NCBI GenBank assembly: GCA_947566645.1
Contig: CANOKL010000012.1
Span: 21,951 to 85,950, forward strand
Direction: 5' to 3'
Source: an uncultured Lachnospiraceae bacterium
GTDB taxonomy: Bacteria > Bacillota > Clostridia > Lachnospirales > Lachnospiraceae
Length of the DNA stretch: 64,000 nt
Made by a program: the position numbers and the translations under genes. The first letter of the stretch is position 1. Each line of letters starts with the position of its first letter. Under the pieces are notes generated by a model. It searched no databases, was not told the DNA's origin, and was given only the letters and a program-made list of their open reading frames with translations. This document shows, in pieces, positions 9,895 to 61,764 of the stretch.

Positions 9895-9898
9895 TTCA

Positions 9899-21550: not shown

Positions 21551-21559
21551 TCGCTCCTC

Positions 21560-38570: not shown

Positions 38571-39686
38571 TTACCGCTGCGGGACATGTACACAGGCAAT
38601 CTCTTCCCTGCTCCTTACTTCCTCCAGCAGTTCCTTAAGCCTCCGGTTGCAGCCTCCCCATGGAATGTCCGTATAGATCACCCTCCTGCATCTGAGAAAT
38701 GCCTCTTTTGCTTCTTCATATACCGGATCACTGATATCCTGGAACGGCTCCTCGGCAATCACCCGGCTGGCAAGCCGTCCTGCCAGATGATAATCCACGT
38801 CATTCCGGTACAGGATGCCTGCAAGGAAGGGGATACCCTCCTTTTGCAGACGCCGGTACACCGGGATTCCCCTGCCTCCGGCAGAAATAACCGCTGTCCG
38901 GGGCTCTCCCTCCTGCCTTGGAAGCTCGATGCTTCCAAAGACCGGGTCAAAGCTTCCTTTTTCGAGACCATACAGCTCCCGGATGAATTCCTCCTTAAGA
39001 ATCTCCTCCGGTGTGCCGCAGTCATACACACACCCCTCCTTCACCGGGATTACCAGATCTGACACCTTTCCTGCAAGGTCAATCTCATGCAGGGACATAA
39101 TGACCGTGATATTCTGTTCCTTCGCCATCTGGCGCAGGATCTCCAGAAGCTCCAGCTTATATTTAATATCAAGAAAGGATGTGGGCTCATCCAGCACCAG
39201 GATCTCCGGCTCCTGGCAGATTGCCCGGGCCAGAAGGATTCTCTGCTTCTGGCCGTCGCTTAAGGAGGTAAACAGACGGCACCCAAGCTCTCTGGCCTGT
39301 ACAAGCTCCATGGCCTGATCTACCTTCTCCTCATCCTCCCGGCTCAGGATTCCAAGCCTTCCGGTATAGGGATATCTGCCGGTGGCCACAATATCATGGC
39401 CTGTCATTAACTCCGGCCTTACCCGGTCTGTCAGCACCACTGCCATCTTCTTTGCCAGCTCCTGGTAAGTGGTATCTGACAGATCCTTTTCCCCCACAGC
39501 CACTCTTCCCTCTATAATACGAAGCTGCCTGGTAATACTTCTCAGAATCGTAGATTTTCCGGCGCCGTTTGGTCCCACCAGGGTGAGAATCTCTCCCTTT
39601 TTCAGGCTGATATTCACATGTTCAAGTATTGCCCTGCCGTGATATCCTACTCCCAGATCCTCTGTCTTAAAATAATAATCTGCCAT
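38571..39686 (-). CDS. FecE/BtuD-type ABC importer ATP-binding protein with about 125-aa C-terminal extension
   Basis: The ORF track gives 378 aa. The likely start is MADYYF (39686), next to the permease stop. GPNGAGKST, LSDGQKQR, ILVLDEP. Residues after about 250 have no ABC counterpart. Confidence 0.8.
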   Translation of the reverse strand: MADYYFKTEDLGVGYHGRAILEHVNISLKKGEILTLVGPNGAGKSTILRSITRQLRIIEGRVAVGEKDLSDTTYQELAKKMAVVLTDRVRPELMTGHDIVATGRYPYTGRLGILSREDEEKVDQAMELVQARELGCRLFTSLSDGQKQRILLARAICQEPEILVLDEPTSFLDIKYKLELLEILRQMAKEQNITVIMSLHEIDLAGKVSDLVIPVKEGCVYDCGTPEEILKEEFIRELYGLEKGSFDPVFGSIELPRQEGEPRTAVISAGGRGIPVYRRLQKEGIPFLAGILYRNDVDYHLAGRLASRVIAEEPFQDISDPVYEEAKEAFLRCRRVIYTDIPWGGCNRRLKELLEEVRSREEIACVHVPQR

Positions 39687-39687
39687 C

Positions 39688-40731
39688 TTACCTCTTCTCC
39701 TTTTCACGGTGAACCAGCATCCAGATCACCACTGGTGCTCCAAGAACCGAAGTCACGGTACTGATATTTAATTCCAGCGGTGCAAATGCCATTCTGGCGA
39801 TCAGGTCACTGAACATACAGAACACTGCACCTCCAAGAAAGGAAGCCGGAATTACAATCAGAGGCCTGGAGGTCCGAAGCGCCAGCTTCGTAAGCTGCGG
39901 AACCGCGATTCCCACAAAAGAAATTGGACCTGCAAATGCTGTTACACAGGCGGAAAATACGCTGGAAAGCAGAATCAGAAAAACCCGGAACACCCTGATA
40001 TTCACCCCCATGCTTCTGGCATACGCCTCTCCCATCTGATACGCCCCAATGGGTTTGGACATCAGAAAGGTACAGAGAAACGTAACTGAGATCATCACCG
40101 CACTAACCCTTACATTGCCCCAGCTCATCCCGGAAAAGCTGCCAAGAGACCATCCCCGCAGATTCACAATATCCGAATCCTCAGCAAAGGTAATGACAAA
40201 GTCCGTCACTGCCGAACAGATGTAGGAGATCATGATCCCGGCAACCAGAAGCGCTGACATATTCTGAAGCCTCTTCGATACCAGGAGCACAAAGCCAACC
40301 GAGATCAGGGAGCCTGCAAACGCAGCCCCTACCAGTGCATAGGAGGACATGCTCCCCATGCTGCCCAGACAGAAGACCATCAGAAGAGCCACCACCATCT
40401 TGGCTCCTGATGAGATCCCAAGGATAAAAGGGCCTGCAATGGGATTATTAAAAAAGATCTGAAGCAGAAAGCCTGAAAGAGACAGGGCTCCTCCCAGAAT
40501 TGCCGCCATCAGCATCCGGGGCAGCCGGATCTGCCAGATAATATGATATTCTGTTTCTCCTGTCTGTCCGGCAAGCAGAATCCTCAGAATCTCTGCCGCG
40601 CTGATCCTGACAGTTCCCGTATTGATATTAACCATTGTCATGATAAGAAGAGCCAGGATCAGACCCAGGAAAACTGCCCCATACCGGCTCCGCCTCTTAA
40701 AATTCTCATAGTGAAAGCTGCTTTCTCTCAT
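39688..40731 (-). CDS. FecCD/BtuC-type ABC importer permease
   Basis: ORF track 347 aa, about 9-10 TM. RLPRMLMAAILGGALSLSG motif. Confidence 0.85.
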   Translation of the reverse strand: MRESSFHYENFKRRSRYGAVFLGLILALLIMTMVNINTGTVRISAAEILRILLAGQTGETEYHIIWQIRLPRMLMAAILGGALSLSGFLLQIFFNNPIAGPFILGISSGAKMVVALLMVFCLGSMGSMSSYALVGAAFAGSLISVGFVLLVSKRLQNMSALLVAGIMISYICSAVTDFVITFAEDSDIVNLRGWSLGSFSGMSWGNVRVSAVMISVTFLCTFLMSKPIGAYQMGEAYARSMGVNIRVFRVFLILLSSVFSACVTAFAGPISFVGIAVPQLTKLALRTSRPLIVIPASFLGGAVFCMFSDLIARMAFAPLELNISTVTSVLGAPVVIWMLVHREKEKR

Positions 40732-41921
40732 TTCTCCACCCTGTATAAAAATGCCATATCCTCTTCCTTACCATCCGTCAGCATAAGATGAATATCCGAG
40801 ATCATCCTGGAAGCAAGATCCGCTGCCTGGTAAAAGTCCTTATCCGTGCAGAAGACATTGCCCTCCTTCACTGCCTTCATATTCTTAAGGATCTCATCCT
40901 TTGCAGTCAGTTCCCCGATAGAAGTAAGCTTCTTGTCAATGGAAGCATTGTATATGATATAGTCTGCATCCGCACAAGTCGTATAGAATTCTTCCATGGT
41001 AATCACCATAGTACTCTTTTTTCCGTCTCCGAGCTGGCTGAAAGGATACCTGCCCCCTGCAATCTCAATCATCTTCGCAATATAGTCTGTTCCGGTCCTG
41101 ACCACTGCCTGTCCGTTAGAATTAATGTAAAAATACGCTACCGTCTGTTCCGTGTTCCGGAGTCCTTCAAGCTCGTCCATCACCTTCGTCTGCTCCTGGA
41201 AAAAAGCTTCCGCTTCCTCCTCCTTATCAAGCAGGACGCCATAGACCAGAATCCACTCCACCCTGCCAAGGGGATGCTCCTCATTACTGGAGCAGTCGAT
41301 CAGTACCGGCACTCCCATCATCTCAAGCTGCTCCATCACCTTCGGTGAATGAAGGATCATCTGGGATTCCACCGCCAGAGAACAGCCCTCATCCACAAGC
41401 ATCTCATAATCCGGCTCGCTGTATTTTCCTGCAAACTGGATCTTGCCTGCCTCCATGGCTTCCCTGGCTGCCTCCACATACCAGTCTTCTGCTTTCAGGC
41501 TGCTGAATCCTACCTGGTCCAGTCCGCCAAGAGCATTGAACATGGACATGGTGGCAGTCCCTGCAACATAGACCCGGTCCAGGGGTCTCTTAAGAACCAC
41601 CATTCCTTCCGGCAGACTGTCCGGAACCTCTTTTCCCTGCGGAACGACCAGATAGGATGCACTTCCCTTAACGTCAATGACCCGGAATCCTTCCTTATAA
41701 TAATAGATACGGAAACCGTCTGCGTATTCAGGTTCAAACCGGGACGCAGGCGTCAGTTCCCCCAGCTCTTCCCCGTCAAATCCAAAGCTTCCCTCTTCTT
41801 CCGGTTCCAGCCCTTCTCCCTGCTGCCCGCTGCAGCCCGTGGCTGCAAAAACCAGAGTCAGCATCCATATTGCCAGGACAACAGGAAAAAAAATATTCCT
41901 CCAGCCTTTTTGCTTCATCAT
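40728..41921 (-). CDS. BtuF/FhuD-type (cluster A) substrate-binding lipoprotein
   Basis: The ORF track extends to 41993. The likely start is MMKQKGWRNIFF (41921). Lipobox FAATGCSG; PBP fold pattern VVLKRPLDRVYVAGT. Confidence 0.8.
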   Translation of the reverse strand: MMKQKGWRNIFFPVVLAIWMLTLVFAATGCSGQQGEGLEPEEEGSFGFDGEELGELTPASRFEPEYADGFRIYYYKEGFRVIDVKGSASYLVVPQGKEVPDSLPEGMVVLKRPLDRVYVAGTATMSMFNALGGLDQVGFSSLKAEDWYVEAAREAMEAGKIQFAGKYSEPDYEMLVDEGCSLAVESQMILHSPKVMEQLEMMGVPVLIDCSSNEEHPLGRVEWILVYGVLLDKEEEAEAFFQEQTKVMDELEGLRNTEQTVAYFYINSNGQAVVRTGTDYIAKMIEIAGGRYPFSQLGDGKKSTMVITMEEFYTTCADADYIIYNASIDKKLTSIGELTAKDEILKNMKAVKEGNVFCTDKDFYQAADLASRMISDIHLMLTDGKEEDMAFLYRVEK

Positions 41922-41993
41922 GTTATCATCCCTTTTCATCTGTGATTGTAGCTGCCTGGTACAATCATTACGCAAGGCTGTACCAGTCCCCAT

Positions 41994-42536
41994 TTATGGC
42001 TTACTGTCTGACGGCACCGGAGATGTAACACGGACCTTATGGTCATACCATGTCCCCTTTTTCCCGATGAGCGCCAGGTCAAATTCCTCTCCGATTGCCG
42101 GAACCGGTATATCGAATCCATAAACTACTTCGGTTAAGCCGTCACTGTATGTAACCGTATCTTCAGTCGGAAGGAGCAGTCCGTCCTCTGCCTTCCCGGC
42201 ATCCTCTGCAGAGCCGCAGTAAAGCTTTACAATATTCTTAGAAGCCAGGGAGACATGGATCGTCATGTTTCCTTTCTCTACTGTCAGCGTCCCTTTCCCG
42301 TCACATGCCTCGCTTACATGGAACATACTGCTGTCCGTCTTGAATTCTGCCGTATAGACTCCGTCAGCCAGTTCAATCACTACGTCTAAATTCTCATCAT
42401 CCAAAGCTTCCGGCTCCTCTTCTGGCACTGCCAGAGCCCCGGAAGGCTCCTGATCCTGTGTACTGCCCTTTTCTGCACATCCTGCCAGGACTGCAGCCAT
42501 CAGCACAATGAAAAAAATCGCACATCCTTTTCGCAT
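41994..42536 (-). CDS. small lipoprotein of unknown function (distant paralog of 46879-47469)
   Basis: ORF track 180 aa. Lipobox VLAGCAEK, acidic linker, then DGVYTAEFKTDS...GTLTVEKGNMTIHV. Confidence 0.55.
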   Translation of the reverse strand: MRKGCAIFFIVLMAAVLAGCAEKGSTQDQEPSGALAVPEEEPEALDDENLDVVIELADGVYTAEFKTDSSMFHVSEACDGKGTLTVEKGNMTIHVSLASKNIVKLYCGSAEDAGKAEDGLLLPTEDTVTYSDGLTEVVYGFDIPVPAIGEEFDLALIGKKGTWYDHKVRVTSPVPSDSKP

Positions 42537-42579
42537 TTTCCGTCACTTCCCTTTTTGCACTCTTGAATCACTTTCTTAC

Positions 42580-42604
42580 GGTCTGTGCAGCAGATGCACA
42601 GACC
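42580..42604 (-). other. perfect 10-bp hairpin after the CbiK-like gene (no U-tract)
   Basis: GGTCTGTGCA-GCAGA-TGCACAGACC, located 18 nt downstream of the stop at 42623. Confidence 0.3.
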
Positions 42605-42622
42605 TGCTGAATAGTTACCCTG

Positions 42623-43825
42623 TTAGTCCATGACTGCCTTTATGTGTTCCACATAGAGCTTCTGAATGTCAGCAATAGAGCCGAGACCAGAGATCTGCGC
42701 ATCCACACTGTCAAATTTCCCGGAAGCCCTGAATACACTGATCCAGGAGTCCTCATCCTCTCCTGCCATATCATTATTCGCATGGTCGCCTGCCACTACC
42801 ATCAGAGGTCGTAAGATCACCTTCTTATAACCAGCCTGTGCCACTGCTTCCATGACCGCTTCGCAGGAGGTTTCCTCTGGTTCTCCCTCTACGGTGCCGA
42901 TGAATACATTGTCATATCCCAGTTCACCCATCTGGGTCTGCATCTGGCTGTAGGATACCTTTGCAGTATGGGAGGTGCCATGTCCCAGGAATACAAATGC
43001 AGTCTGGTCCTCCTTTGCCGCGTCCAGGCTGCCAAAGCCTGCTTCTTTTACTGCTTCTGCGGTAAGTGCCTTTGCAACTGCCTCTTTATCGGCATTGATC
43101 ACCGCTGCATCCGTACCCACGTCGCCCAGGAGAGGCTCCGCCACCTTCACTGTCCCGAACTGATCCGCATATGCCGAAACTGTCTCCATCATCTCATCAT
43201 ATTCCGCACCGTGCATCAGATGCGTTGGCTGCACAACCAGATTCTTTACTTTATTTGCCACCGCACGTTCCAGCGCCTGCTGCATGTTATCAATGGCCTC
43301 GCCGTCCCGCGCCTGCACATGATTAATAATAATCTGCGACGTGAACGCCCTTCTAACAGACCAGTCCGGATATGCCGCCTGTATGGCGTCCTCAATTCCC
43401 TTAATGTCATCCACACGGCTGCTGTTAAAGGAAGTACCGAAGCTGACTGCCAGAATCTCATTTTCCCCGATCTCATCCTGATTGCGGGGATCATCCTTTG
43501 AAGCATCCCCGGTATCCCTGCCAAAATAATCCGGATCTGCATTCTTGCCTGAAACCTGTTCCTTCTCTTCCTCTGTCAGGGCATCCCATGCTTCCTTTGC
43601 CTTCGCACACTGCTCATCCGTCTGGTCTGTCCTCTCCTGCACATAGATTGCGTCAATTAACGCGGCTGCCTCTCCCACTGCATCCAGCTCCTTTCCCGTG
43701 TTCGTATCCGTTTCCTTCTCTGTGGGTGTTGTATCTTTCTCTGCATCTCCTCCCGAACAGCCTGTCAGTACCATCGAACACGCCATAACCCCTGTCAATA
43801 ATGCTGCTGTCAATCTTGCCTTCAT
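42623..43825 (-). CDS. cbiK: CbiK-type sirohydrochlorin cobaltochelatase homolog with lipoprotein signal and about 110-aa acidic N-terminal linker
   Basis: ORF track 400 aa. MKARLTAALLTGVMACSMVLTGCSGG lipobox. The chelatase core starts at ILAVSFGTS. The catalytic-His regions are kept: VQPTHLMHGAEY, FLGHGTSH, MVVAGDHANNDMAG. Confidence 0.75.
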   Translation of the reverse strand: MKARLTAALLTGVMACSMVLTGCSGGDAEKDTTPTEKETDTNTGKELDAVGEAAALIDAIYVQERTDQTDEQCAKAKEAWDALTEEEKEQVSGKNADPDYFGRDTGDASKDDPRNQDEIGENEILAVSFGTSFNSSRVDDIKGIEDAIQAAYPDWSVRRAFTSQIIINHVQARDGEAIDNMQQALERAVANKVKNLVVQPTHLMHGAEYDEMMETVSAYADQFGTVKVAEPLLGDVGTDAAVINADKEAVAKALTAEAVKEAGFGSLDAAKEDQTAFVFLGHGTSHTAKVSYSQMQTQMGELGYDNVFIGTVEGEPEETSCEAVMEAVAQAGYKKVILRPLMVVAGDHANNDMAGEDEDSWISVFRASGKFDSVDAQISGLGSIADIQKLYVEHIKAVMD

Positions 43826-45360
43826 CTTTTCTTCCCCTTTTCTTCTCTGTGATATTTAGTTATACAGTACTGTACCAGCTCTTCCAGTGTGGCATTACGG
43901 GCAGTCACAGTCTGCATCCCGGCTCTTTCTGCCGTCTGTGCAGTCTTCCTGCCGATGCATACTGCCCTCACCTTTTCATAAGGGTATGCACCCAGAAGCC
44001 TGCAGAATCCCTCCACTGTGGAACTGCTGGTGAAGATCACCTTCGTGACGCCGCCGTCTTCCATGAAGGAGCGAAGACGCTCTCCCATCTCTTCCTCAAA
44101 CTGCGTATTATAGACCGCCAGGTCTGTGTAAGTCAGGGACTGGTTCTTAGCGATCTCCTGTAAGATCTCCGGGGCTCCGATGGAGGATCTTGCAAGCAGA
44201 ATTCCCGCCCCGTCCTCCAGGGTCTCACAAAGCAGCCGTCCAAGGGAGGCACCGTCATACTGCTCTGGCATATAATCTGCCCGGATCCCTTTTTCCTTAA
44301 GAGCATCCGCCGTCCCCTGTCCGATCACGGCGAATCTCATATGTGACACATCCCTGGCATCCATTCCTTCCTCCAGAAGAATCTCGAAAAACCGCTCCAC
44401 TCCATAAGGAGACGTGAATGCCAGCACCTGATATTCCTTAAGTCTCTCAAGCTCTGCCCGGATCCTCTCAAGGTTCTCCTTCTCAGTAACCGGGACCGTC
44501 CGGATCACCGGGACTGACAGAACCTCTGCCCCTAATTCCTTTAAGTAATTCTGCAGCTTCATACCTCGTCCGGCAGGACGTGTTACCACAATCCTTTCCC
44601 CTGATAAGGGAAGATCCTTGTACCAGGAGAATTGATCCGCAAGAGCGCAGACCTCTCCCACAACGATAATGGCAGGGGTTCCGATTCTTTGCTTCCTTGC
44701 TTCTTCCGCCAGAGTCTTCACAGTTGCCGCAATCCGTCTCTGCTCTGCCGTTGTTCCCTTTTCCAGAATAGCCGCAGGCATATCCTCCCTCATTCCTGCA
44801 CCCAGAAGACCCTCCATGATCCCCTCCAGTGCAGCCACACCCATAAGAAATACCAGTGTCCCCTTCGTCCGGACAAGGGCTTCATAATCAATCTCTTCAC
44901 TTTTTCCGGCTTTGTGATGCCCTGTGATAATATGTACACCAGACACATAGTCCCTGTGCGTAACCGGAATCCCCTGATAAGCCGGAACTGCAAAGGCAGA
45001 AGAGATCCCCGGCACCACCTCAAACGGAATTCCTTCCTTATTAAGAGCCTCTAATTCCTCTCCTCCTCTTCCGAACAAAAAGGGATCCCCACCCTTCAGG
45101 CGGATTACCTTTTTGCCAAGCTTTGCCTCCCTGACCAGTATCTGATTGATCTCCCACTGGGGCACCGGGTGATTTCCAGATGTTTTTCCCACATCAATCA
45201 TCTCACGGTCTGGCGGAATCATGGCAAGTATCTCCCTGCCCACAAGCCTGTCATATACAATACAGTCCCCGGTTTCTAACAGCCGGCACGCTTTTACGGT
45301 TAATAGCTCTGCCGGACCAGGACCTGCGCCTACTAGCCATACTTTTCCTGCCTGCTTCAT
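43822..45360 (-). CDS. cobA-hemD: uroporphyrinogen-III C-methyltransferase fused to uroporphyrinogen-III synthase
   Basis: ORF track 512 aa. N-terminal VWLVGAGPGPAELLTVKA (SUMT); a C-terminal HemD-like half of about 250 aa. Confidence 0.85.
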   Translation of the reverse strand: MKQAGKVWLVGAGPGPAELLTVKACRLLETGDCIVYDRLVGREILAMIPPDREMIDVGKTSGNHPVPQWEINQILVREAKLGKKVIRLKGGDPFLFGRGGEELEALNKEGIPFEVVPGISSAFAVPAYQGIPVTHRDYVSGVHIITGHHKAGKSEEIDYEALVRTKGTLVFLMGVAALEGIMEGLLGAGMREDMPAAILEKGTTAEQRRIAATVKTLAEEARKQRIGTPAIIVVGEVCALADQFSWYKDLPLSGERIVVTRPAGRGMKLQNYLKELGAEVLSVPVIRTVPVTEKENLERIRAELERLKEYQVLAFTSPYGVERFFEILLEEGMDARDVSHMRFAVIGQGTADALKEKGIRADYMPEQYDGASLGRLLCETLEDGAGILLARSSIGAPEILQEIAKNQSLTYTDLAVYNTQFEEEMGERLRSFMEDGGVTKVIFTSSSTVEGFCRLLGAYPYEKVRAVCIGRKTAQTAERAGMQTVTARNATLEELVQYCITKYHREEKGKKR

Positions 45361-46241
45361 ATCCCATCCTCCTTAAGCCTTTTTGCAAGCTCTATTCCAA
45401 GTGCCGCAGCACTGCTCCGGCTGCCTGTCATCTGCATTCTCCGGGAGGTTCCGGTCGCTTCATCATAATACAGCCCCCGTACCTCCATCCGCTCTTCATC
45501 CACGATCTCTGCATATACGCCGATCGGCACAGAGCAGCCTCCATTCAGATAGGTCATGAATGCCCTCTCGCACAGAGCGCAGTCTCCTGCCTCCCTGTCA
45601 AAAAACCCCTGCAGGAAACCATAGTCCCTGTCTGACCGCCCCTGGATGCCCAGAATTCCCTGCCCGGCAGCTGGTATCATCTCATCTGTCTGGAAATATC
45701 TGCTGATACGCCCCTCAAGTCCAAGCCTCTTTAAGCCTGCAGCCGCCAGAACCAGTGCACCGCATTCCCCCCGGTCCAGTTTTTCCAGTCTGGTCAGGAC
45801 ATTTCCTCTCATATTTTTTATCTCCACTCCCGGATAAATGTCCTGGAGCTGAAGAATCCTCCTGTTGCTAGAGCAGCCGATGGGAGCGCGTCCGTCATAT
45901 TCTGTAACTCCCTCTGGCAGTACCAGGACGTCTCTTGCATCCTCCCTGCCGGAAAATCCAATGAGAGGAAGCCCTGCCGGCACATCCATGGGCATATCCT
46001 TTAAGGAATGCACAGAGAGATCTGTTACACCGTTCTTTAGCGCAAGGTCCAACTCCTTAACAAACAATCCCTTCTCCCCGATCTCATCTAACTTCTTTGA
46101 CAAAATCTGATCTCCGGTGGTTACCACCTTCACCAGCTCTGCTTCATATCCTTCACAATTAAGGTTAATATATCTTGCCACGATTTCCGCCTGGATCACT
46201 GCCAGCCGGCTCTTTCTTGTTCCAATTCTGATCTTCTTCAT
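45357..46241 (-). CDS. hemC: hydroxymethylbilane synthase (porphobilinogen deaminase)
   Basis: ORF track 294 aa. IRIGTRKSRLAVIQAE, HSLKDMP. Confidence 0.9.
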   Translation of the reverse strand: MKKIRIGTRKSRLAVIQAEIVARYINLNCEGYEAELVKVVTTGDQILSKKLDEIGEKGLFVKELDLALKNGVTDLSVHSLKDMPMDVPAGLPLIGFSGREDARDVLVLPEGVTEYDGRAPIGCSSNRRILQLQDIYPGVEIKNMRGNVLTRLEKLDRGECGALVLAAAGLKRLGLEGRISRYFQTDEMIPAAGQGILGIQGRSDRDYGFLQGFFDREAGDCALCERAFMTYLNGGCSVPIGVYAEIVDEERMEVRGLYYDEATGTSRRMQMTGSRSSAAALGIELAKRLKEDGI

Positions 46242-46294
46242 AGTTCTTAACTGTTCACTACCTTCACAGTTACATGCCTCCTTCTATTCTTCCA

Positions 46295-46882
46295 TTATCC
46301 ATAAAGGGAGTCTCTGACCACTCCCCGAAGTTTCGCCGCCACTCCCACAGCTGCCACGCAGAGGGCAAAATCTGGTCCTACTGTCAGCAGAAAGCAGTTC
46401 ACCAGCAGGATCTTCCATGTGACCTCCTGAAAAATCAGGAAATGACAGACAACAAAAAAGTACAGCATCCCGATTCCATAATAGACCAGCAGACCAACAA
46501 TGGAGATAAACAAAAGTTTCCAGAACCTGATTCGTCCTGCCTCTTCACACATCCACGCCATAATATACGCTGCAAGGGCAAACCCCAGAAGATATCCAAA
46601 GGATGGCCGAAGCAGATAGGAAGGCCCTCCCCCTGAGGCAAAGATGGGCACCCCGGTTAATCCAATCAGCAGATATACACCCACACTGGCCCCTGCAAGA
46701 CGCTTATTCAGAAGCAGGCCTGCGAGCAGTACAAAAAACCACTGCAGAGTAAAATGCATCGGAATTGGTTCTGTAGGCAATGTAATCTTAATAAATGCTC
46801 CGACAGCGACCAGCGCCGCAAACAAACCGCCTGCTGTCAGCTCCCGTATACTCAAAAATTGTTTTTCACTTTTTACGTTCAT
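46295..46882 (-). CDS. BioY-family membrane protein (ECF S-component-like)
   Basis: ORF track 195 aa. GVPIFASGGGPSYLLRPSFGYLLGF matches the BioY hallmark GG.GY...PT.GYL.GF. Confidence 0.7.
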   Translation of the reverse strand: MNVKSEKQFLSIRELTAGGLFAALVAVGAFIKITLPTEPIPMHFTLQWFFVLLAGLLLNKRLAGASVGVYLLIGLTGVPIFASGGGPSYLLRPSFGYLLGFALAAYIMAWMCEEAGRIRFWKLLFISIVGLLVYYGIGMLYFFVVCHFLIFQEVTWKILLVNCFLLTVGPDFALCVAAVGVAAKLRGVVRDSLYG

Positions 46883-47469
46883 CTTTTTGCTCCCAAATAA
46901 TCCTTCCTTTTTTTCTTGTTCACAAAGTAGTTTAATATGCCGCCAGCGATAATAATAAAGGCTGCCATAACGAGAACACGCTTTGCCCCCTCCTGAGGCA
47001 GACTGCTCTCACTGCCGATGGAGTCTGAATAAAACAACAGTGTGTACGGAATCTCATGGGGCGTTCCCATTGCCACTGTATCTGCAATCACCGGCATCTC
47101 CTCATCAAATACAAGTATGGGAATACGGAAAGTGGAGTTGCCCCCCTGTGTATTCTCATTATCATAAGTCTCACCATCTACGATCATATAGTCATAATTC
47201 GGGCTGCTCCAGGTAATCTGGGCGAAACATTCTCCCTTCTCCACTGTCAGCCGGGTCGGGGACTCTACACTTGCCTTTCCGCTTCCTCCTGATAAAACAA
47301 CCTCTATCGCATAATTTCCGTCTGCCAGAGTCTGTCCCTCCAGACGGCTCTCTGCCGCCACGCTTGTGCAGGTCCCCATGCCTGCTGCCGCAAGTCCGAG
47401 ACAGAATCCTGTCAGCGCCGCAAGACACCGTAATATTTTCTTCCTGCTCCCGCCAGCCAGATCTTTCAT
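46879..47469 (-). CDS. secreted, C-terminally membrane-anchored protein of unknown function
   Basis: ORF track 196 aa. N-terminal signal, DGNYAIEVVLSGGSGKASVESPTRLTVEKGECFAQITWSSPNYDYMIVDG, C-terminal TM segment plus KKKRK. Confidence 0.55.
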   Translation of the reverse strand: MKDLAGGSRKKILRCLAALTGFCLGLAAAGMGTCTSVAAESRLEGQTLADGNYAIEVVLSGGSGKASVESPTRLTVEKGECFAQITWSSPNYDYMIVDGETYDNENTQGGNSTFRIPILVFDEEMPVIADTVAMGTPHEIPYTLLFYSDSIGSESSLPQEGAKRVLVMAAFIIIAGGILNYFVNKKKRKDYLGAKR

Positions 47470-47481
47470 ACTATATCCCTC

Positions 47482-48213
47482 CTACAAATTTTTTTTCTTA
47501 TATAAAAAGCAAAATGCAAGGACCATCAGTATGGCAAGATATGCTGCCAGAATTCCGATTCCCGCATAAGAAAAAGGCTCCCTGTTTGCGATACTGCGGA
47601 TCATACTGCTTGCCTGTGAAAGAGGCAGCAGCTGGATCACCTCTCTCAGCCCGTGAGGTATGGAATCCGATGAAAAAAATGTGTTGCACAGATAGGCCAT
47701 CGGCATAATCACATAGTTGGAAAAACGCGGCACATCCGTATGCGTTCTGGCGTAAAAGGATACCACCACCCCAAGGGTGGAGAACACTGCTCCGTTCAGA
47801 AACATAATGAGAAACGACCAGCCGTTAAAGCAAAGCCTGACTCCGATGGGAAGCACCAGCAGGATAATCACACAGCCTGCATAGATTCCTCTTAAGCTCC
47901 CTCCGATAATCTGCCCTGCAATAAACTGCCACAGTGGAGTGGGGGAGATCATCACCTGGTCAAACGCCTTTTCATACAGACGCTGCACATTCAGATTCTG
48001 TGCAATGGCATTAAAGCTTCCATTCATTGTTGTCAGCGCCACCACGCCCGGGATCAGAAACTGCAGGTACGGCTGTCCATGTGAAATTGTCTGAATCCCC
48101 ATGCCAAATACGAGAATATACATAAGCGGGGCAATCATTGCCGCCAGTGTAATCTTATAAAAATCTCTCCGGAATTCCACCCATTTTTCCCATAATACTG
48201 TTACGATTCCCAT
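47482..48213 (-). CDS. ABC-2 type exporter permease
   Basis: ORF track 243 aa, 6 TM, ABC-2 pattern. Paired with the upstream ATPase. Confidence 0.75.
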   Translation of the reverse strand: MGIVTVLWEKWVEFRRDFYKITLAAMIAPLMYILVFGMGIQTISHGQPYLQFLIPGVVALTTMNGSFNAIAQNLNVQRLYEKAFDQVMISPTPLWQFIAGQIIGGSLRGIYAGCVIILLVLPIGVRLCFNGWSFLIMFLNGAVFSTLGVVVSFYARTHTDVPRFSNYVIMPMAYLCNTFFSSDSIPHGLREVIQLLPLSQASSMIRSIANREPFSYAGIGILAAYLAILMVLAFCFLYKKKNL

Positions 48214-48239
48214 AGTCTGCCTTTCTTCCTCTATTATTT

Positions 48240-48437
48240 CTCTAACGACTTCCCAGATACTTTCCTGCTTTTCTCTAGCATCTTTCCAGATACTTTTCTG
48301 CTTTTCTCTAGCATCTTTCCAGATACTTTCCTGCTTTTCTCTAGCATCTTTCCAGATACTTTCCTATTTTTCTCTAACGTCTTTCCAGATACTTTCCTGC
48401 TTTTCTCTAGCGTCTTTCCAGATACTTCCCTACTTTT
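48240..48437. repeat. 33-bp tandem repeat, 6 copies
   Basis: Unit CTCTAGCATCTTTCCAGATACTTTCCTGCTTTT. Copies at 48240, 48273, 48306, 48339, 48372, 48405. The last copy is the 3' end (VGKYLERR*) of the ABC ATPase gene. Confidence 0.9.
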
Positions 48438-49249
48438 TCAAGGAACACATCTTCCAGCGTAGTATTTCTCAGAGACGCCATATCTTTGCCCCCGGACAGA
48501 TAATTGACTGCCTCCTCCTGTGTCTGAAAGAAGAAGCTTCTGGTCTGCTCCTCTGATACCTGATCCACCGCATATCGTCCCAGCCGGTCAATCATTGCCC
48601 TGGGTGAATCTACCTCCTGAAGCCTCCCGCGGTCCATCAGTCCTACCTGGTCGCAGAGAATCTCCGCTTCCTCCATATAGTGTGTCGTAAGCAGGATGGT
48701 CAGATGATTCCGGTTTAATCTTTTCAGAAGATTCCACATCTGACGTCTGGCCAGGGCGTCCATCCCTGCTGTCGGCTCATCCAGAAGAAGAATCTCTGGT
48801 CCGGTAAGCAGTGCGCGGCATACCATGAGCTTCCTCTTCATGCCGCCTGAGAGCTTGCGTACTGTACGCTTTCTGTAATCCATAAGATCACAGAACTCCA
48901 GAAGCTCCTGCGTCTTTTCCCTTCTCTCCTTCTTTGGCACGAAATACAGTCTTCCCTGGTATTCCATGACCTCCTCTATGGTCATATCCTGCCTCATGGA
49001 GTACTCCTGCGTCACAACACTGATCTTGCGTTTCAGCGCCGTATTTTTTCTCGTCAGCCTTTCGCCGTCTATGAGAATCTCGCCTTCTGTAGGAAGAAAC
49101 AGGGTGGACAGCATTCCGATGGTCGTAGACTTCCCTGCGCCGTTCGGCCCGAGAAGCCCAAAAAAGCCTCCAGTTTCAATGGTCAGATCCAGTTCCTTTA
49201 CAGCCGTAAATTCATCATATTTCTTCGTAAGCTTTTTTAGTTCAATCAT
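48407..49249 (-). CDS. ABC-2 type exporter ATP-binding protein
   Basis: ORF track 280 aa. GPNGAGKST, LSGGMKRK, ILLLDEP. Confidence 0.85.
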   Translation of the reverse strand: MIELKKLTKKYDEFTAVKELDLTIETGGFFGLLGPNGAGKSTTIGMLSTLFLPTEGEILIDGERLTRKNTALKRKISVVTQEYSMRQDMTIEEVMEYQGRLYFVPKKERREKTQELLEFCDLMDYRKRTVRKLSGGMKRKLMVCRALLTGPEILLLDEPTAGMDALARRQMWNLLKRLNRNHLTILLTTHYMEEAEILCDQVGLMDRGRLQEVDSPRAMIDRLGRYAVDQVSEEQTRSFFFQTQEEAVNYLSGGKDMASLRNTTLEDVFLEKVGKYLERR

Positions 49250-49934
49250 GTCCGTTCTCTTTTACCACAATAATTGTATAATAGCTTGCATCTTCCGGCA
49301 TTTCCTCTATCTGCCCGTATATTCTCTCCTCAGGGAGGCCGCAGTTTTCCACCATGATCCCTCTCATGCCCTTTTCCTTAAGCGTCTGTTTCACGACAGA
49401 AAGCTTAGACGCCGCTTTCATCAGCACCTTGCTGCCCGGATAGGTCAGCGCCTCTTCAATATCATAAGTGGACGGAATAATATGAAGCTGTTCTGACCGG
49501 TCAGCCAGACTGTCCCCAAGCTTTGCCGACACTGCACAGAACGATGGAATACCGTTAATAATCTGTGCATCATATCCCCTTGCCTTTACAATGCGGTGAA
49601 TATAAATATAAGTGGAATAAATGGTCGGATCACCAAGCGTCAGATACGCCACATCCTTTCCTTCCTCCAGCCGTTCTATAATCCGTCTGGCCGCCTCCTC
49701 ATAATTCTGTTCCAGTACCTTAAGATCCTTTGTCATGGGAGTGGAAAGATTCAGACATTCCTTTTCATCCAGTCCTTTTACAATTCCACCCGCAATCCGG
49801 TAGCTCACTGCATGTTCCCTGCCCTCTGCAGGTACGGCTATAACCGGACATTTTTCGATTGTCTCTACTGCAAGATAAGTCATAAGCCGGAAATCCCCCG
49901 GTCCGACTCCCACCCCGTATAAAGTTCCCTTCAT
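49242..49934 (-). CDS. cbiL: cobalt-factor II / precorrin-2 C20-methyltransferase
   Basis: ORF track 230 aa. MKGTLYGVGVGPGD. Confidence 0.85.
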   Translation of the reverse strand: MKGTLYGVGVGPGDFRLMTYLAVETIEKCPVIAVPAEGREHAVSYRIAGGIVKGLDEKECLNLSTPMTKDLKVLEQNYEEAARRIIERLEEGKDVAYLTLGDPTIYSTYIYIHRIVKARGYDAQIINGIPSFCAVSAKLGDSLADRSEQLHIIPSTYDIEEALTYPGSKVLMKAASKLSVVKQTLKEKGMRGIMVENCGLPEERIYGQIEEMPEDASYYTIIVVKENGHD

Positions 49935-49972: not shown

Positions 49973-50004
49973 AAAAATACCTGTTTCCTTCCGAAAACAG
50001 GTAT
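49973..50004 (-). terminator. intrinsic terminator (second of two) in the riboswitch expression platform
   Basis: The minus strand reads ACCTGTTT-TCGGAAGG-AAACAGGT followed by ATTTTT. Confidence 0.6.
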
Positions 50005-50007
50005 CAT

Positions 50008-50036
50008 AAAAAACCGTGAAGCCTGACAGCTTCATG
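50008..50036 (-). terminator. intrinsic terminator (first of two) in the riboswitch expression platform
   Basis: The minus strand reads TGAAGC-TGTCAG-GCTTCA followed by CGGTTTTTT. Confidence 0.6.
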
Positions 50037-50079
50037 CTCTTTGCATGAACCCGCTTTCGTCGGAAGCTTGTTCATAAAT

Positions 50080-50262
50080 ATTTCCAGCAGGTTTCCTGGC
50101 TTGCAGATCATCACCTGACCATACCTTCTCGCAGTTCTTCCTGCAATGGCGTTACATGGTCTCACTCCCTGCTCACAGTGACCGGATCGCTCAGGTTTTA
50201 CACCTGATTCCCTTTTAACCTGTCGGATTCGCCCTGATGAGGACTCCACTGACAGGCACTGA
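50080..50262 (-). promoter_or_regulatory. cobalamin riboswitch aptamer
   Basis: The minus strand reads GGTTAAAAGGGAATCAGGTGTAAAACCTGAGCGATCCGGTCACTGTGA ... GCCATTGCAGGAAG ... AAGCCAGGAAACCTGCTGG (B12-box). It parallels the E. coli btuB leader core UAAUAGGGAAUCCAGUGCGAAUCUGGAGC / AAGCCCGAAGACCUGCCGG. Confidence 0.85.
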
Positions 50263-50269
50263 AAATATT

Positions 50270-52141
50270 CTATGATGTAAGCGTCAAAAGATATTTCCGC
50301 TCATATTTCTCTTTTAAATCCTTACAGACCTCTTCCACAGAGCGCCCTGTTTCCTTCGGGCGCCGGATAACGACCAGCGTTGTCCCTGTCTCCGTGCAGG
50401 CCTGTATCTTTTCCTCCATTCCTCCGGCGTCTCCGGACTCCTTTGTCACAAAGAAATCCGCATCCGCATAATGAATCGCCGCAATGTTCATTTCCTTTGA
50501 AAACGGAGCCTGCATGGCGATCAGGTTTCTCCCGGAAAAACCGCATTCTGCACTGGACATTATGGAATCCGGTACAGAGAGTACTCTCGCACAGCAGCGT
50601 GTCCTATAATCCGGTATCTCGCAGAATCTCCTAAGTTCCTTGCTCCCGGTTGTAATGAGGATCCTTCCCTTTACAGTTTTCAGATATTCTACTGCCTCCT
50701 TTACAGAAGACACATACACAGCCCGGCCTGTCTCCTCCTCCGGCGTCTTTGTCTCTTCCCGCAGACACCGGATATATTCTGTTTCTGTTTCTTCACACGC
50801 CTGCCTGATCTGTCTGGTTACCTCTGTAGCAAAGGGATGGGTCGCGTCAATCACAAGGCTAATAGAATGTTCCTGAATGAAAGAGCTCATCTCTTCCCTG
50901 TCCATCCGCCCGCAGATTACCTTTGTCTTCTCATCCTCTGCAATCCCCTCTTTTCCGTATTCTGTGGCAACACTTACGGTTACCTCTGCCCTGAGAGTCC
51001 TAAGGAAAGCAAGCAATTCAAGGCTTTCTGTCGTGCCGCCAAATAAAAGTATACCCGGCAGCTTCTCCTCCACAAGGGCGAGGGTGATCCCTCCGGCAAT
51101 TCTCTTCGGCTGCAGAAGCTTTCCCTCTGGAGCACAGTATCTTGCAGCACGCTCACATACATTATCCACCCCAGCCGTCTTAAGGACAAAATCAGATCCT
51201 GTCATCTCACCCGGAACCTTCTGAAGCTCCCTGGCAGAATATGTATAAAATGGAAGATGATGTTCTCTGGCAAACGCCAGGATGCCAGGCTCCTCCTTCT
51301 TAAGATCAATGCTTGCAAGGCACGATACATTTCCAAGCCCAAGTCCGTGTTCCTTAAGAAGTCTTTCCAGAGAAACCTCAATCTGATGCTTTGACGTCCC
51401 CCGCCTGCATCCGATTCCCACCACAATTCTGCGAAACCTCCTTGACCTTAAGAAGAGTATGTTCTCTTTCCGTTCACAGGCTGGCGCCTCCCTGGCCCTG
51501 TCCACAACCGCAATCCCATATGCATAATCAGACAGCTCCTTGATACTGGTACACCGGATCAGTCCCTCCGGAACAGGTTCTGCTAAAGGTACTTCACTGT
51601 AAAACCCAATTGGCCTGTCCTCCAGCACTGCTGCAGATATCTTTGTCACAAGGCTCCGGTCCGTGATCTCAAGATCATTCCTCCGCGCAAACATGTCAGC
51701 CGCAAATCTGCCCTGTACATCCGTGGCCGTTGTAATTACTGCTTTGGCATGCATTGCCCTTTCGATCTCCTTAGCAGCCTCCACTGCACCCCCCATGTGT
51801 CCGGAAAGCAGAGGGATCACATGCTCTCCCTTCTCATCCATCACAAGCACCGCTGAATCCGTATACTTGTCTTTCACCCAGGGTGCAATACATCTGACTG
51901 CAATTCCCGACGCGCCGATGAATAAGAACATCTTCTTTCCCCACCGCTGCCCGACCCACGTCTTCAGATCCACGTCCGGCGCCTTCAGATCCTCTGTGTC
52001 CTGAAGCCTTGCCGTCGTATATCCCTCACAGAGATAACCGCAGCCTGAAAGCTGCTCCTGAACACATCTGTTCAGCTTGTTCCCTGTCATTGTAAAACTA
52101 AAGATTACTATTTCCTTTTGGTTATTCATAATTTTAAACAT
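50270..52141 (-). CDS. cbiGJ: cobalt-precorrin-5A hydrolase fused to cobalt-precorrin-6A reductase (CbiG-CbiJ)
   Basis: ORF track 623 aa. CbiG C-domain IVVGIGCRRGTS...CLASIDLKKEEPG. From about residue 365, a CbiJ/CobK-like region GILLFGGTTESLELLAFL...SVATEYG. Confidence 0.8.
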   Translation of the reverse strand: MFKIMNNQKEIVIFSFTMTGNKLNRCVQEQLSGCGYLCEGYTTARLQDTEDLKAPDVDLKTWVGQRWGKKMFLFIGASGIAVRCIAPWVKDKYTDSAVLVMDEKGEHVIPLLSGHMGGAVEAAKEIERAMHAKAVITTATDVQGRFAADMFARRNDLEITDRSLVTKISAAVLEDRPIGFYSEVPLAEPVPEGLIRCTSIKELSDYAYGIAVVDRAREAPACERKENILFLRSRRFRRIVVGIGCRRGTSKHQIEVSLERLLKEHGLGLGNVSCLASIDLKKEEPGILAFAREHHLPFYTYSARELQKVPGEMTGSDFVLKTAGVDNVCERAARYCAPEGKLLQPKRIAGGITLALVEEKLPGILLFGGTTESLELLAFLRTLRAEVTVSVATEYGKEGIAEDEKTKVICGRMDREEMSSFIQEHSISLVIDATHPFATEVTRQIRQACEETETEYIRCLREETKTPEEETGRAVYVSSVKEAVEYLKTVKGRILITTGSKELRRFCEIPDYRTRCCARVLSVPDSIMSSAECGFSGRNLIAMQAPFSKEMNIAAIHYADADFFVTKESGDAGGMEEKIQACTETGTTLVVIRRPKETGRSVEEVCKDLKEKYERKYLLTLTS

Positions 52142-52216: not shown

Positions 52217-53128
52217 TTATCTACTAACAACGAACACGGTTGACAGAATCAGCACAAAGCCTGCCAGATCAATCAGCATAAACGGAGTCTTAAGCCACAC
52301 TGCCGAAAATACGGTAGCAGTCACGGCTTCAATGCAGGCATACAGGCTTGCCCTTGCAGGACCGGAAAATCTGACCGAATATGCATATAGCAGATATGCC
52401 GCCGCCGAACCGCCGATAATAATAAAAAACAGTGAAACCAGCACCATCGCGTCCCAACGGACTTCATACGTCCAGGGCCTGGACAGCAGAGTCAGCACAA
52501 TACCCCCGAAGAGAAGAGACCACCCCACAATCACGGTAGACGAATATCTCTGGTACAGTGATTCTGGAACAACTGTATTCAGGAACATACAGAAAGCACA
52601 TCCAAGCCCCCATCCAAGCGCCTCCGGGGTCATAACCAGCGACTTCACATTTCCATGAGTGGATATGAGGAAAATGCCGCTTACTGCCAGGATGATGGCC
52701 ACAAGCTGTGTCCTGTCCGGCCTTTTCCTGTCCCGGATGCAGACATATACCATGACAAGAACCGGACACAGATACTGCAGCACGGTAGCCGTACCCGCAT
52801 TGGAACGCTGTACGGCTCCGAAAAAAGCCACCTGGAATGTCATAGTTCCACATATACCGGCAATCATGGTCTGCAGGAGATCCCGGCGGTTTCTGCACAA
52901 TTTCAGCATTTCATCCCGGTTTGTACAGAACATCATCAAAACCATCAGAATCCCGGAAGTAGTCAGACGGATCGGTATCAGCCAGGAAACCTTAATATCC
53001 CTTGTCTCAAATAAAAACTGGCCGAACACGCCGGAAACTCCCCATAATACTCCTGCAGACAGGCCCAGAAAAGCTCCTGACAGTGCCTTTTTACCACTCA
53101 TCCTTTTCAAACACCGTCTGCTCATCAA
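52217..53128 (-). CDS. EamA/DMT-superfamily transporter
   Basis: ORF track 303 aa, 10 TM, two-EamA-repeat pattern. The start may be the Met at 53101. Confidence 0.7.
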   Translation of the reverse strand: MMSRRCLKRMSGKKALSGAFLGLSAGVLWGVSGVFGQFLFETRDIKVSWLIPIRLTTSGILMVLMMFCTNRDEMLKLCRNRRDLLQTMIAGICGTMTFQVAFFGAVQRSNAGTATVLQYLCPVLVMVYVCIRDRKRPDRTQLVAIILAVSGIFLISTHGNVKSLVMTPEALGWGLGCAFCMFLNTVVPESLYQRYSSTVIVGWSLLFGGIVLTLLSRPWTYEVRWDAMVLVSLFFIIIGGSAAAYLLYAYSVRFSGPARASLYACIEAVTATVFSAVWLKTPFMLIDLAGFVLILSTVFVVSR

Positions 53129-55715: not shown

Positions 55716-55792
55716 ACAATTTCCTCCTTCTGTCAACGCAATGAATACTCTATCTTATACTCACGGCCGGTGAAATCTGGCGCGCAGTATAA

Positions 55793-56461: not shown

Positions 56462-56482
56462 CTTAGCTCTTAGCCTCTTGTT

Positions 56483-58489: not shown

Positions 58490-58585
58490 ATCTGTCCCCC
58501 TATACCGTCAGCTTTTTTCTATCTTTTTATCCAGCAGCGATTCAGTCAGTACAAAAACTGCCGCATCGTTACTGTCTTCTATATA

Positions 58586-60127: not shown

Positions 60128-60267
60128 AAAGCCTCCTTTCCAGGTTATTTAAAACCTGCTTCCGGCAATCTGATATGCTTATATTAGGAGACAGGCCAAC
60201 GCAACCGGAATAATTCCCTGCTGCATTGACCTGTCATGTAACAGGACAGCTTGTCTGAACTGTTACA

Positions 60268-61728: not shown

Positions 61729-61764
61729 ATTTGTTCTCCTTCACTAATCCCTTATATCGCTACT

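Follow-up and report, generated by a model that had tools for sequence, protein, structure and literature searches.

Relays that carry a tetrapyrrole from the bacterial surface to a membrane importer are known from the Isd, Shp-Hts and Listeria Hbp systems, in which surface NEAT-type domains form a chain that delivers the tetrapyrrole to an IsdE-type lipoprotein and on to a FecCD permease. The Iht system of Porphyromonas gingivalis (IhtB/FetB together with IhtC/D/E) places a surface lipoprotein of the CbiK chelatase family beside a binding protein, a permease and an ATPase (PMC12094164). In Desulfovibrio, one B12 element controls a cbiK-cbiL-btuCDF locus, in which cbiK lies beside cbiL and a FecCD-type importer, and known cobalt transporters are lacking (PMC545781); its CbiK is taken here to be the exported one, whose active site is intact. 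CbtJKL of Sinorhizobium meliloti, a look-alike of BtuFCD, is, like BtuFCD, a binding-protein-dependent FecCD-type importer repressed through an adenosylcobalamin (AdoCbl) riboswitch, and imports Co(II) (PMC7689651). Here, these systems are compared with a locus from an uncultured Lachnospiraceae bacterium (GenBank assembly GCA_947566645.1, contig CANOKL010000012.1, positions 21,951 to 85,950; this stretch of 64,000 nucleotides (nt) is referred to as the window), in which an exported CbiK-type chelatase, two NEAT-like proteins and a FecCD-type importer are encoded in the middle of a B12 biosynthetic operon.

From the arrangement of its genes, we infer that the region holds an Isd-like extracytoplasmic relay which serves cobamide synthesis and is off when B12 is available. 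The part of it that consists of the exported CbiK, the NEAT-like domains and the importer (unit A) is likely to be a B12-controlled, that is B12-repressed, relay and import system for a cobalt-bearing tetrapyrrole, because the characterised relatives of every unit A component bind tetrapyrroles, because of the repression by B12 and because of the setting within cobamide operons. New with respect to the known systems are the joining of a chelatase with NEAT-like domains, the lipid and helix anchors, the lack of heme-ligand motifs, the control by B12 and the partner unit with an ABC-2-type (ATP-binding cassette) pair. The Desulfovibrio locus differs in belonging to a Gram-negative organism with a periplasmic CbiK and in being devoid of the NEAT-like relay, the ABC-2 pair, the lipid anchor and the N-terminal extension; for its CbiK(P), a heme role has been proposed. 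Lobo and colleagues reportedly described, in 2008, a second, cytoplasmic CbiK in the same organism, and we take the cbiK of the riboswitch locus to be the periplasmic paralogue. The Iht system of P. gingivalis differs in being a heme, iron or manganese-porphyrin system with a TonB-dependent receptor, and in having neither a B12 riboswitch nor NEAT domains nor a link to cobamide genes. Unlike Isd, Shp and Hbp, the window system has lipid or membrane-helix anchors and no sortase, gives no Pfam NEAT match, is under a B12 riboswitch in place of iron control, has a chelatase at the head of the relay and includes no heme-degrading enzyme. Neither a chelatase nor NEAT proteins accompany CbtJKL and BtuFCD. 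Literature searches on NEAT with cobalamin or corrinoid, and on cbiL with ABC-2, returned no description of such a system, those on CbiK lipoproteins returned only the FetB/Iht work, and a survey paper on NEAT domains makes no mention of cobal-, B12 or chelatase. The database names of the proteins are generic ("hypothetical", "iron transporter", "BioY").

The exported chelatase, its NEAT-like partners and the importer

Unit A and the NEAT-like protein g4, encoded farther upstream, are made up of the following genes:

42623-43825, minus strand: exported CbiK-type class II chelatase lipoprotein, lipobox LTGC (PF06180, 6e-69)
41994-42536, minus strand: g9 lipoprotein, lipobox LAGC, with a NEAT/Shp-like domain at about residues 57-175 (AF2 and Foldseek)
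40728-41993, minus strand: Peripla_BP_2 substrate-binding lipoprotein (PF01497, 4.8e-35)
39688-40731, minus strand: FecCD/BtuC-type permease (PF01032, 1.6e-75)
38571-39707, minus strand: importer ATPase with a C-terminal extension of about 120 amino acids (PF00005, 9.5e-31)
46879-47469, minus strand: g4, with an N-terminal signal or anchor helix, a NEAT-like domain at about residues 48-147 and a C-terminal membrane helix (AF2 and Foldseek)

Signal peptides and lipoboxes, in the window proteins and in their orthologues, were read from the sequence by eye. The chelatase domain of the exported CbiK occupies amino acids (aa) 124-399 and is preceded by an N-terminal extension of 120 aa, of which 80 aa are conserved. 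Its best relatives of solved structure are P. gingivalis FetB (9b86, 2.5e-34), CbiK of Salmonella enterica (1qgo) and CbiK(P) of Desulfovibrio vulgaris (2xvx), and it scores 176.8 with the NCBIfam equivalog NF047852, below the cutoff of 400. When aligned to 1qgo, the residues F10, H145, E175 and H207 (S. enterica numbering) are invariant in 68 of 68 distinct exported CbiKs, whose identity across loci is 66-77%. All exported-CbiK orthologues carry signal peptides, at variance with the cytoplasmic location of a class II cobaltochelatase. Cobalt is handled by exported homologues: FetB catalyses the insertion of Co and Mn into porphyrin (PMC13065792), and the catalytic histidine of Dv-CbiK(P) is a binding site for Co2+ (PMC4063343).

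The conserved part of the CbiK extension (residues ~45-125, AALIDAIYVQERT...ADPDYFGRDTGDAS) was found in 316 representative proteins by a search with the extension. Part of it, the first and helical half, is repeated in very large proteins, with up to 18 copies in one of 2214 aa, and the extension may, judging from such repeats, be a generic surface spacer; its second half is Asp-rich.

The invariant active site bears on two other explanations of the locus. In corrinoid scavenging, the exported CbiK would be a non-catalytic high-affinity receptor for cobalamin, cobinamide or cobyric-acid-type corrinoids of the gut lumen, the NEAT-like domains would relay the corrinoid to a BtuFCD-equivalent importer and the ABC-2/g4 unit would do something else, so that the system would be a Gram-positive counterpart of the Bacteroides surface B12-capture proteins. 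This explanation, which we regard as somewhat doubtful, leaves the invariance of all chelatase residues unexplained. In a relay for cobalt ions, CbiK would capture Co2+ and pass it to NEAT-like metallochaperones, and the FecCD importer, perhaps with the ABC-2/g4 unit, would feed a cytoplasmic CbiK in place of CbiMNQO. The invariance of the metal-binding residues is consistent with such a relay, which is nonetheless improbable, since the characterised relatives of every component (NEAT, IsdE-like, BtuC-like, chelatase cleft) bind tetrapyrroles. To our knowledge, no NEAT-type domain carries a free metal ion, and we know of no precedent for an ABC-2 importer.

No Pfam (E ≤ 0.01) or NCBIfam model matched g4 or g9, their sequences gave nothing useful against solved structures and the binding-protein sequence alone had no match in the PDB, so that predicted folds and a profile were needed. 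The AlphaFold2 (AF2) model of g4, with a predicted local distance difference test (pLDDT) of ~90 in its core, matched 18 PDB entries at E ≤ 1e-3 in Foldseek, all of them NEAT domains and with target-normalised template modelling (TM) scores of ~0.6; these included Listeria Hbp2-N2 at 1e-5, IsdX1, IsdC and IsdH-N3. The g9 model (core pLDDT >90) gave weaker matches, to Shp (2q7a) at 4e-4 and to Hbp2-N2 at 9e-4. On these models, g4 and g9 are divergent NEAT/Shp-like domains with the fold of Gram-positive heme receptors, the eight-stranded, immunoglobulin-like beta-sandwich of NEAT domains being recovered in the predicted g4 and matched less closely by the predicted g9. Homologues, on whose alignments the two models were built, number more than 7000 for g4 and at least 8000 for g9 (clusters at 90% identity), and those from named sources belong to Lachnospiraceae or related Clostridia. 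Some carry a precomputed PF05031 match, which is faint for P0097, the sole case with its strength shown. The motifs GGSGKA, WSSxNYDYM and ADTxAMGxPHExxY are invariant in g4, and TDSSMFH and WYDH are conserved in g9. Of the 120 g9 homologues that score best, most are ~300-aa lipoproteins in which a g9 domain is followed by a g4-like domain, so that the g4 and g9 of the window are the halves of one widespread protein type. A profile-profile comparison of g4 with g9 matched only the g4-like half of such fused rows and says nothing on homology between the two, and their pairwise BLAST match is marginal (E 0.028).

The sole NCBIfam match of the binding protein, the start of which is placed ~25 codons later by gene callers elsewhere, is IsdE at 8e-5. 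Its profile matched Lmo2184 best in the PDB (5joq, 3.6e-8) and did not match BtuF. Lmo2184 serves the Listeria NEAT (Hbp) locus as its IsdE-type binding protein. The permease scores highest, among NCBIfam models, with BtuC (NF003001, 206.8 bits), below the cutoff of 334. FecE and the archaeal corrinoid ABC ATPase model NF007082, both of NCBIfam, align through residue 345 of the importer ATPase, and a 371-aa call of this protein carries a precomputed match to PF27219 (MJ0874). The C-terminal domain of the ATPase (residues ~255-378) is common to the archaeal corrinoid ABC ATPase family, is missing from some orthologues (263 aa in locus L007) and may be regulatory. The BtuC-like permease and this shared C-terminal extension speak for corrinoid scavenging, and the binding protein, which has no detectable similarity to BtuF, speaks against it. 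Taken as a set, the genes are not those of BtuFCD, for which a BtuF-like binding protein and BtuC and BtuD at curated scores would be expected; they do correspond to an Isd-type set, with surface NEAT proteins, an IsdE-type lipoprotein, a FecCD permease and an ATPase in one locus. Among the neighbours, there is no sortase anchoring, iron regulation or heme-degrading enzyme, and lipoboxes, a membrane helix and a B12 riboswitch are found instead.

These relatives invite a comparison with heme or iron acquisition of the Isd/Iht type, in which case the system would merely have been placed in a B12 operon. The nearest structural relatives of g4 and g9 are heme receptors, those of the binding protein are IsdE and Lmo2184, FetB/IhtB and Dv-CbiK(P) bind heme (PMC12094164, PMC13065792), and the fused g9-g4 protein is named 'iron transporter' at NCBI. 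However, the NEAT heme-ligand motifs SxxxxY (3-10 helix) and YxxxY (strand 8) are absent from g4 and g9, which have HxxxY and WYDH, respectively, and the loci contain no heme-degrading enzyme or sortase. The conserved residues of g4 and g9 are polar and may line a pocket, their positions being taken from secondary-structure strings and not from coordinates. With the control by B12 described below, these features make heme acquisition very unlikely.

The occurrence of unit A elsewhere was followed in a metagenome scan anchored on the N-terminal extension of the exported CbiK, which matched at least 584 stretches, of which 80 loci were read; there is redundancy among these, and they probably come from no more than a handful of groups at species level (individual loci are given as L numbers). 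The synteny of exported CbiK, NEAT-like protein(s), binding protein, FecCD permease and ATPase is kept in more than 60 loci, and a NEAT-like gene is adjacent or fused in 51 of 53 exported-CbiK loci. In the dominant layout, the riboswitch precedes CbiK, a fused g9-g4 lipoprotein, the binding protein, the FecCD permease and the ATPase, after which cbiP-cobT-cobU-cobS follow. Using a profile built from nine Rfam-confirmed aptamers, a B12 riboswitch was found less than 900 nt upstream of unit A in 62 of the 66 loci with enough upstream DNA; the four without a close riboswitch are three Dorea-like loci with the window arrangement (L014, L015 and L017) and one in which the gene lies deeper in the operon (L026). 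Rfam itself confirmed the riboswitch in ten unit A loci, in addition to that of the window. A riboswitch directly upstream, as with known B12 importers, is in favour of corrinoid scavenging; together with the constant embedding in cobamide operons, it argues against heme. As in the Desulfovibrio type, the window has an exported CbiK beside a binding protein, FecCD permease and ATPase, with a B12 riboswitch and cbiL in the same unit.

Domain fusions indicate the order of the parts. In three loci (L154, L162 and L165), the exported CbiK continues at its C-terminus into the g9 domain, and the binding lipoprotein is preceded, in one polypeptide, by an N-terminal g4-like domain, which gives the order chelatase, g9, g4, binding protein, permease, following the logic of the Isd heme relay. 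Accordingly arranged, the relay would have the lipid-anchored CbiK-type chelatase, with its intact active site, as its outermost part; the tetrapyrrole would be handed from CbiK to the g9 NEAT-like domain, from there to the g4-type NEAT-like domain, and then by way of the IsdE-like binding lipoprotein to the FecCD/ATPase importer.

Three units with separate distributions

The genes between the riboswitch and unit A, other than g4, are as follows:

49242-49934, minus strand: cbiL, cobalt-factor II / precorrin-2 C20-methyltransferase (TIGR01467, 188.9 bits, cutoff 163)
48407-49249, minus strand: ABC-2-type (DrrA/NodI-like) ATPase (PF00005, 3.9e-34; TIGR01188 drrA, 254.8 bits, below cutoff)
47482-48213, minus strand: ABC-2 permease (PF01061, 2.4e-21)
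46295-46882, minus strand: BioY-family membrane protein (PF02632, 1.3e-34, 119.5 bits)
45357-46241, minus strand: hemC, hydroxymethylbilane synthase (precomputed PF01379/PF03900 on an identical gene product)
43822-45360, minus strand: cobA/hemD fusion, uroporphyrinogen-III synthase and C-methyltransferase (precomputed PF00590 and PF02602)

The cbiL gene, the ABC-2 pair and g4 form a second unit (unit B). An ABC2_membrane permease with a DrrA-like ATPase marks the pair as being of the ABC-2 exporter type, its NCBIfam subfamily scores lying below the cutoffs, and the permease has only weak ABCG matches in the PDB. An exporter-type ABC-2 pair beside a single-helix-anchored beta-sandwich protein recalls CcmAB-CcmE, LptB2FG-LptC and NosDFY-NosL, in which ABC-2 or related pumps hand a cargo to an anchored extracytoplasmic acceptor; this is an analogy only and is not based on sequence. 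In a scan with one genome per species, at least 575 stretches encode a g4 relative. Among the best 80 loci, which were read, the ABC-2 pair lies within 3.5 kb of g4 in 70, and cbiL abuts the ABC-2 ATPase in 52. The anchored g4 protein carries an extra g9-like domain in some lineages. A short CbiK with no signal peptide is present in 15 loci, several times directly beside unit B, and in Blautia, Eubacterium ramulus and others, no riboswitch was found within 10 kb of unit B. About a dozen of the 80 loci have units A and B side by side, the importer ATPase being followed directly by cbiL-ABC-2-g4 in L026, L029, L062, L071 and L089. A position of cbiL after the importer, as in several lineages and in Desulfovibrio (PMC545781), is left unexplained by corrinoid scavenging, as are the NEAT pairs beside cbiL and cbiK and the exporter-type pump.

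The BioY-like protein represents a third unit (unit C). It belongs to the BioY family; however, it lacks a biotin context and close likeness to a characterised BioY, since it matches the Lactococcus lactis BioY structure 4dve only at 9e-6 and has no NCBIfam match. Identity within its subfamily is 54-98% among the matches listed. In three other lineages, the gene lies beside hemC and cobA/hemD (8001-8579 in L178, 8001-8582 in L179 and 8001-8621 in L180); one of these loci has no other B12 gene within 8 kb, another adjoins a precorrin-2 dehydrogenase gene, and in none of the three were a riboswitch or hemA/L/B found. The protein is therefore probably a separate importer of porphobilinogen, or of another precursor, that feeds HemC, in keeping with the concept of tetrapyrrole-precursor salvagers (PMC6461909). 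A part for it in the relay was rejected on the ground that its subfamily goes with hemC and cobA/hemD.

An earlier sequence-only reading of the window had proposed a single riboswitch-controlled surface module for capture, metallation or demetallation and import of corrinoids or other tetrapyrroles. Synteny, fusions and the riboswitch bear out a surface tetrapyrrole-handling system, tied to B12 synthesis, for the CbiK lipoprotein, the small lipoprotein, the anchored protein and the importer, and the NEAT/Shp-like models of the small lipoprotein (g9) and the anchored protein (g4) agree with the parts assigned to them. The module itself does not hold together as one, as comparative genomics resolves it into three units (exported CbiK; cbiL-ABC-2-g4; BioY-like), and the BioY-like protein, which it had included in the surface system, is more likely a precursor importer. 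Linkage to the riboswitch holds for the exported-CbiK unit in nearly all loci and fails for the cbiL-ABC-2-g4 unit, which is usually found without one.

That the genes form no functional unit at all, unrelated transporter and lipoprotein genes having been inserted into the operon by rearrangement, is exceedingly improbable. The occurrence of the window gene order in the Dorea-like lineage only (L014-L017) and of the three sub-units separately elsewhere would fit such an accident; the fusions between parts, the synteny in more than 60 loci and the overlapping start and stop codons in the window contradict it. Conservation does so too: the exported CbiK (at the identities given above) and the ABC-2 permease (mostly 62-93% across species, two partial matches being lower) compare with roughly 40-80%, often only 40-60%, for the biosynthetic enzymes of the same loci; the ABC-2 ATPase is 63-87% identical in other species. 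For the CbiK-NEAT-importer unit, this explanation is close to excluded.

The ligand of the proposed relay

As to the ligand, the possibility that we slightly prefer to corrinoid scavenging, and put forward tentatively, is a loop of surface chelation in which cobalt-sirohydrochlorin, formed at the surface of the cell, is the ligand. Metal-free sirohydrochlorin would be exported to the membrane-anchored g4 by the ABC-2 pair, whose synthesis is translationally coupled to that of CbiL, the exported CbiK would load it with scavenged Co2+, and the cobalt-sirohydrochlorin would be re-imported and methylated by CbiL. An intermediate of the pathway would in this way double as a cobalt-capturing carrier and replace a cobalt-ion transporter. 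Such a loop accounts for the invariant chelatase site, for the exporter-type pump and for the linkage of both NEAT units to cbiL and cbiK, each of these units adjoining cbiL and/or cbiK. It also accounts for the lack of cbiMNQO in the window and near the 80 related loci of the unit B scan, where no cbiMNQO-like cluster was found, for the sole chelatase of the window being exported and for the Desulfovibrio parallel. On these grounds, we tentatively infer the identity of the ligand, the direction of the ABC-2 pump and chelation outside the cell. It is possible, and is suggested with some reserve, that many gut Lachnospiraceae, and perhaps Desulfovibrio, carry out the cobalt insertion step of B12 synthesis outside the cell; two NEAT-like domains and a FecCD importer would return the cobalt-sirohydrochlorin.

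A number of observations weigh against surface chelation. The fold match of g9 is weak (TM ~0.4-0.6). In Blautia, cbiL-ABC-2 and g4 occur with a cytoplasmic cbiK, and no exported CbiK was found within 10 kb. Exported and short cytoplasmic CbiKs occur together in L045 and L080, and in L162, at 15200-16938, a cytoplasmic CbiK-CbiL fusion of 491 aa lies directly after the importer and is followed by a cysteine-rich protein of 87 aa; cytoplasmic chelation therefore exists in those species. The relay of L162 is present with no ABC-2 pair beside cbiL. Absence of a gene from the operon is not absence from the genome, SirC being missing from the window as well. In the metagenome loci, cbiP-cobT-cobU-cobS follows the importer in 28 of 34 cases, a continuation that resembles corrinoid salvage operons.

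Several of these points speak for corrinoid scavenging in turn, namely the dominance of the layout with riboswitch, relay and cbiP-cobT-cobU-cobS, and the coexisting cytoplasmic CbiKs of L045, L080 and L162. Standalone copies of unit A, whose examined flanks (4.8-9.3 kb in L165; also L158 and L136) are free of B12 biosynthetic genes, point the same way, whereas the location of the relay mostly inside de novo biosynthetic operons points the other way. A cobalt-ion relay, for its part, would be in line with the CbiKcyt-CbiL fusion directly after the importer in L162, with the missing cbiMNQO near these clusters, with the Desulfovibrio species that have cbiK-cbiL-btuCDF and are devoid of known cobalt transporters (PMC545781), and with the precedent of CbtJKL (PMC7689651).

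Operon setting, neighbouring genes and significance

The control region and the remaining features of the operon outside the genes listed above are:

50069-50278, minus strand: cobalamin riboswitch aptamer (RF00174, 116.8 bits, E 1.3e-28, full-length model match)
50034-50017 and 50005-49976, minus strand: two terminator-like hairpins with T-runs (consensus scan and sequence reading)
50270-52141, minus strand: cbiG-cbiJ fusion, one gene of 623 aa, upstream of the riboswitch
48237-48437, no strand assigned: 33-nt tandem repeat of 6.1 copies filling the spacer between the ABC-2 ATPase and permease genes (TRF score 318, 91% matches)

The hairpin pair (49976-50034), which lies between the aptamer and the cbiL start, is probably the expression platform of the riboswitch, its function being deduced from sequence; a ribosome-binding site can be read between the hairpins and the cbiL start. 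The aptamer overlaps the stop codon of cbiG-cbiJ by 9 nt, and, barring a further element, cbiG and cbiJ would seem to escape control by the riboswitch. Downstream (3') of the importer ATPase, the minus strand continues with cbiD, cbiF, cbiH, cbiET, cbiA, cobT and cobS, then with cobC, cbiB, cobD, cbiP, cobU and cbiC, reaching ~25519, and the consensus scan of the minus strand found no strong internal terminators. Gene spacing in the stretch from cbiL to the importer is -20 to +86 nt, many neighbours overlapping by 4-20 nt (cbiL and the ABC-2 ATPase start by 8 nt, cobA/hemD and the exported cbiK start by 4 nt). The sole long spacer, of 193 nt (48214-48406), separates the ABC-2 ATPase from its permease. 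Each unit of the repeat that fills it is a copy of the last seven codons of the ATPase gene, the stop codon and 9 nt. The repeat is also present in L003, of the same species, and not in other species, where the ATPase-permease spacers have a median of 15 nt, range up to 277 nt and often contain hairpins; it was accordingly rejected as a conserved feature.

All the genes that the sequence-only reading had listed are present, on the minus strand and 3' of the riboswitch, and its tiny gaps describe the spacing well apart from the 193-nt gap. Its absences were reproduced by Pfam scans of nearly all larger open reading frames (ORFs) of the 64 kb, in which no cbiMNQO, second or cytoplasmic chelatase, SirC (precorrin-2 dehydrogenase) or hemA/L/B was found; the scans covered all but five small ORFs of 99-131 aa (435-830, 996-1325, 1881-2243, 2283-2627 and 6026-6325), among which a CbiN-sized gene could lie. 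Among the scanned ORFs, the exported CbiK is thus the only chelatase of an otherwise complete B12 operon. As a general property, the want of a cytoplasmic chelatase does not stand, and the exported CbiK was rejected as the sole chelatase of these organisms by rule, given the loci with both types (L045 and L080) and the CbiKcyt-CbiL fusion (L162). The gene arrangement of the window recurs in many other genomes, which makes it more than a product of chance, its exact order being specific to the Dorea-like lineage; the closest g4 proteins among the matches listed are from an uncultured Dorea sp. and a Lachnospiraceae isolate (95-96% identity).

Other genes surround the operon. A 131-aa ORF (26175-26570, minus strand), which adjoins the full-length cobU (26567-27109), matches only the C-terminal half of CobU, and a short CobU-like gene of this kind (orf131) recurs after cobS in many related loci. 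A five-gene ABC importer of the Opp/Nik family (19545-25335, minus strand) begins 184 nt 3' of cbiC on the same strand. It was rejected as the missing cobalt transporter, as its binding protein scores best as OppA and only weakly as NikA or CntA, and as it shows no linkage to B12 genes in relatives. On the other side, 53091-54410 (minus strand) encodes the selenoprotein B of a glycine/betaine/sarcosine reductase, with an in-frame UGA at 53361-53363 in STUGTCTRCG; a SECIS_4 element (63.1 bits, 53323-53360) lies directly after the UGA, the frame runs for 89 more codons, and a component B subunit gene of the same reductase is found at 54429-55736. A cobamide-dependent methyltransferase cluster (55793-63971, minus strand) is located just upstream of the B12 operon, so that a consumer of B12 adjoins the genes of its producer; it includes an MttB-family methyltransferase (60268-61728), a corrinoid protein (61765-62439), a URO-D/MtbA-like methyltransferase (62919-63971), a BCCT transporter (58586-60127), a hydantoinase/MutL-like protein (56483-58489) and a DUF1638 protein (55793-56461). 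Two tandem genes for proteins of 542 and 570 aa with AAA-ATPase_like and PD-(D/E)XK (PDDEXK_9) domains (6445-9899, minus strand) have pyrimidine/purine-type permease and amidohydrolase genes as neighbours.

Lachnospiraceae are major B12 producers in the human gut, and little is known of the ways in which Gram-positive bacteria of the gut acquire cobalt and corrinoids. The surface capture proteins of Bacteroides are well studied, and we know of no equivalent described for Lachnospiraceae. The present system is very common. It indicates a B12-linked use for the NEAT fold, with a relay order that the fusions make concrete, and joins the long unexplained periplasmic chelatase of Desulfovibrio and the FetB system of P. 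gingivalis in a common theme. The BioY-family protein tied to hemC is, separately, a candidate for the unknown transporter of the tetrapyrrole-precursor salvagers. If chelation is extracellular, this step of B12 biosynthesis would need redrawing, as a new kind of biosynthetic step, and the system may show how abundant gut bacteria get their cobalt or corrinoids.

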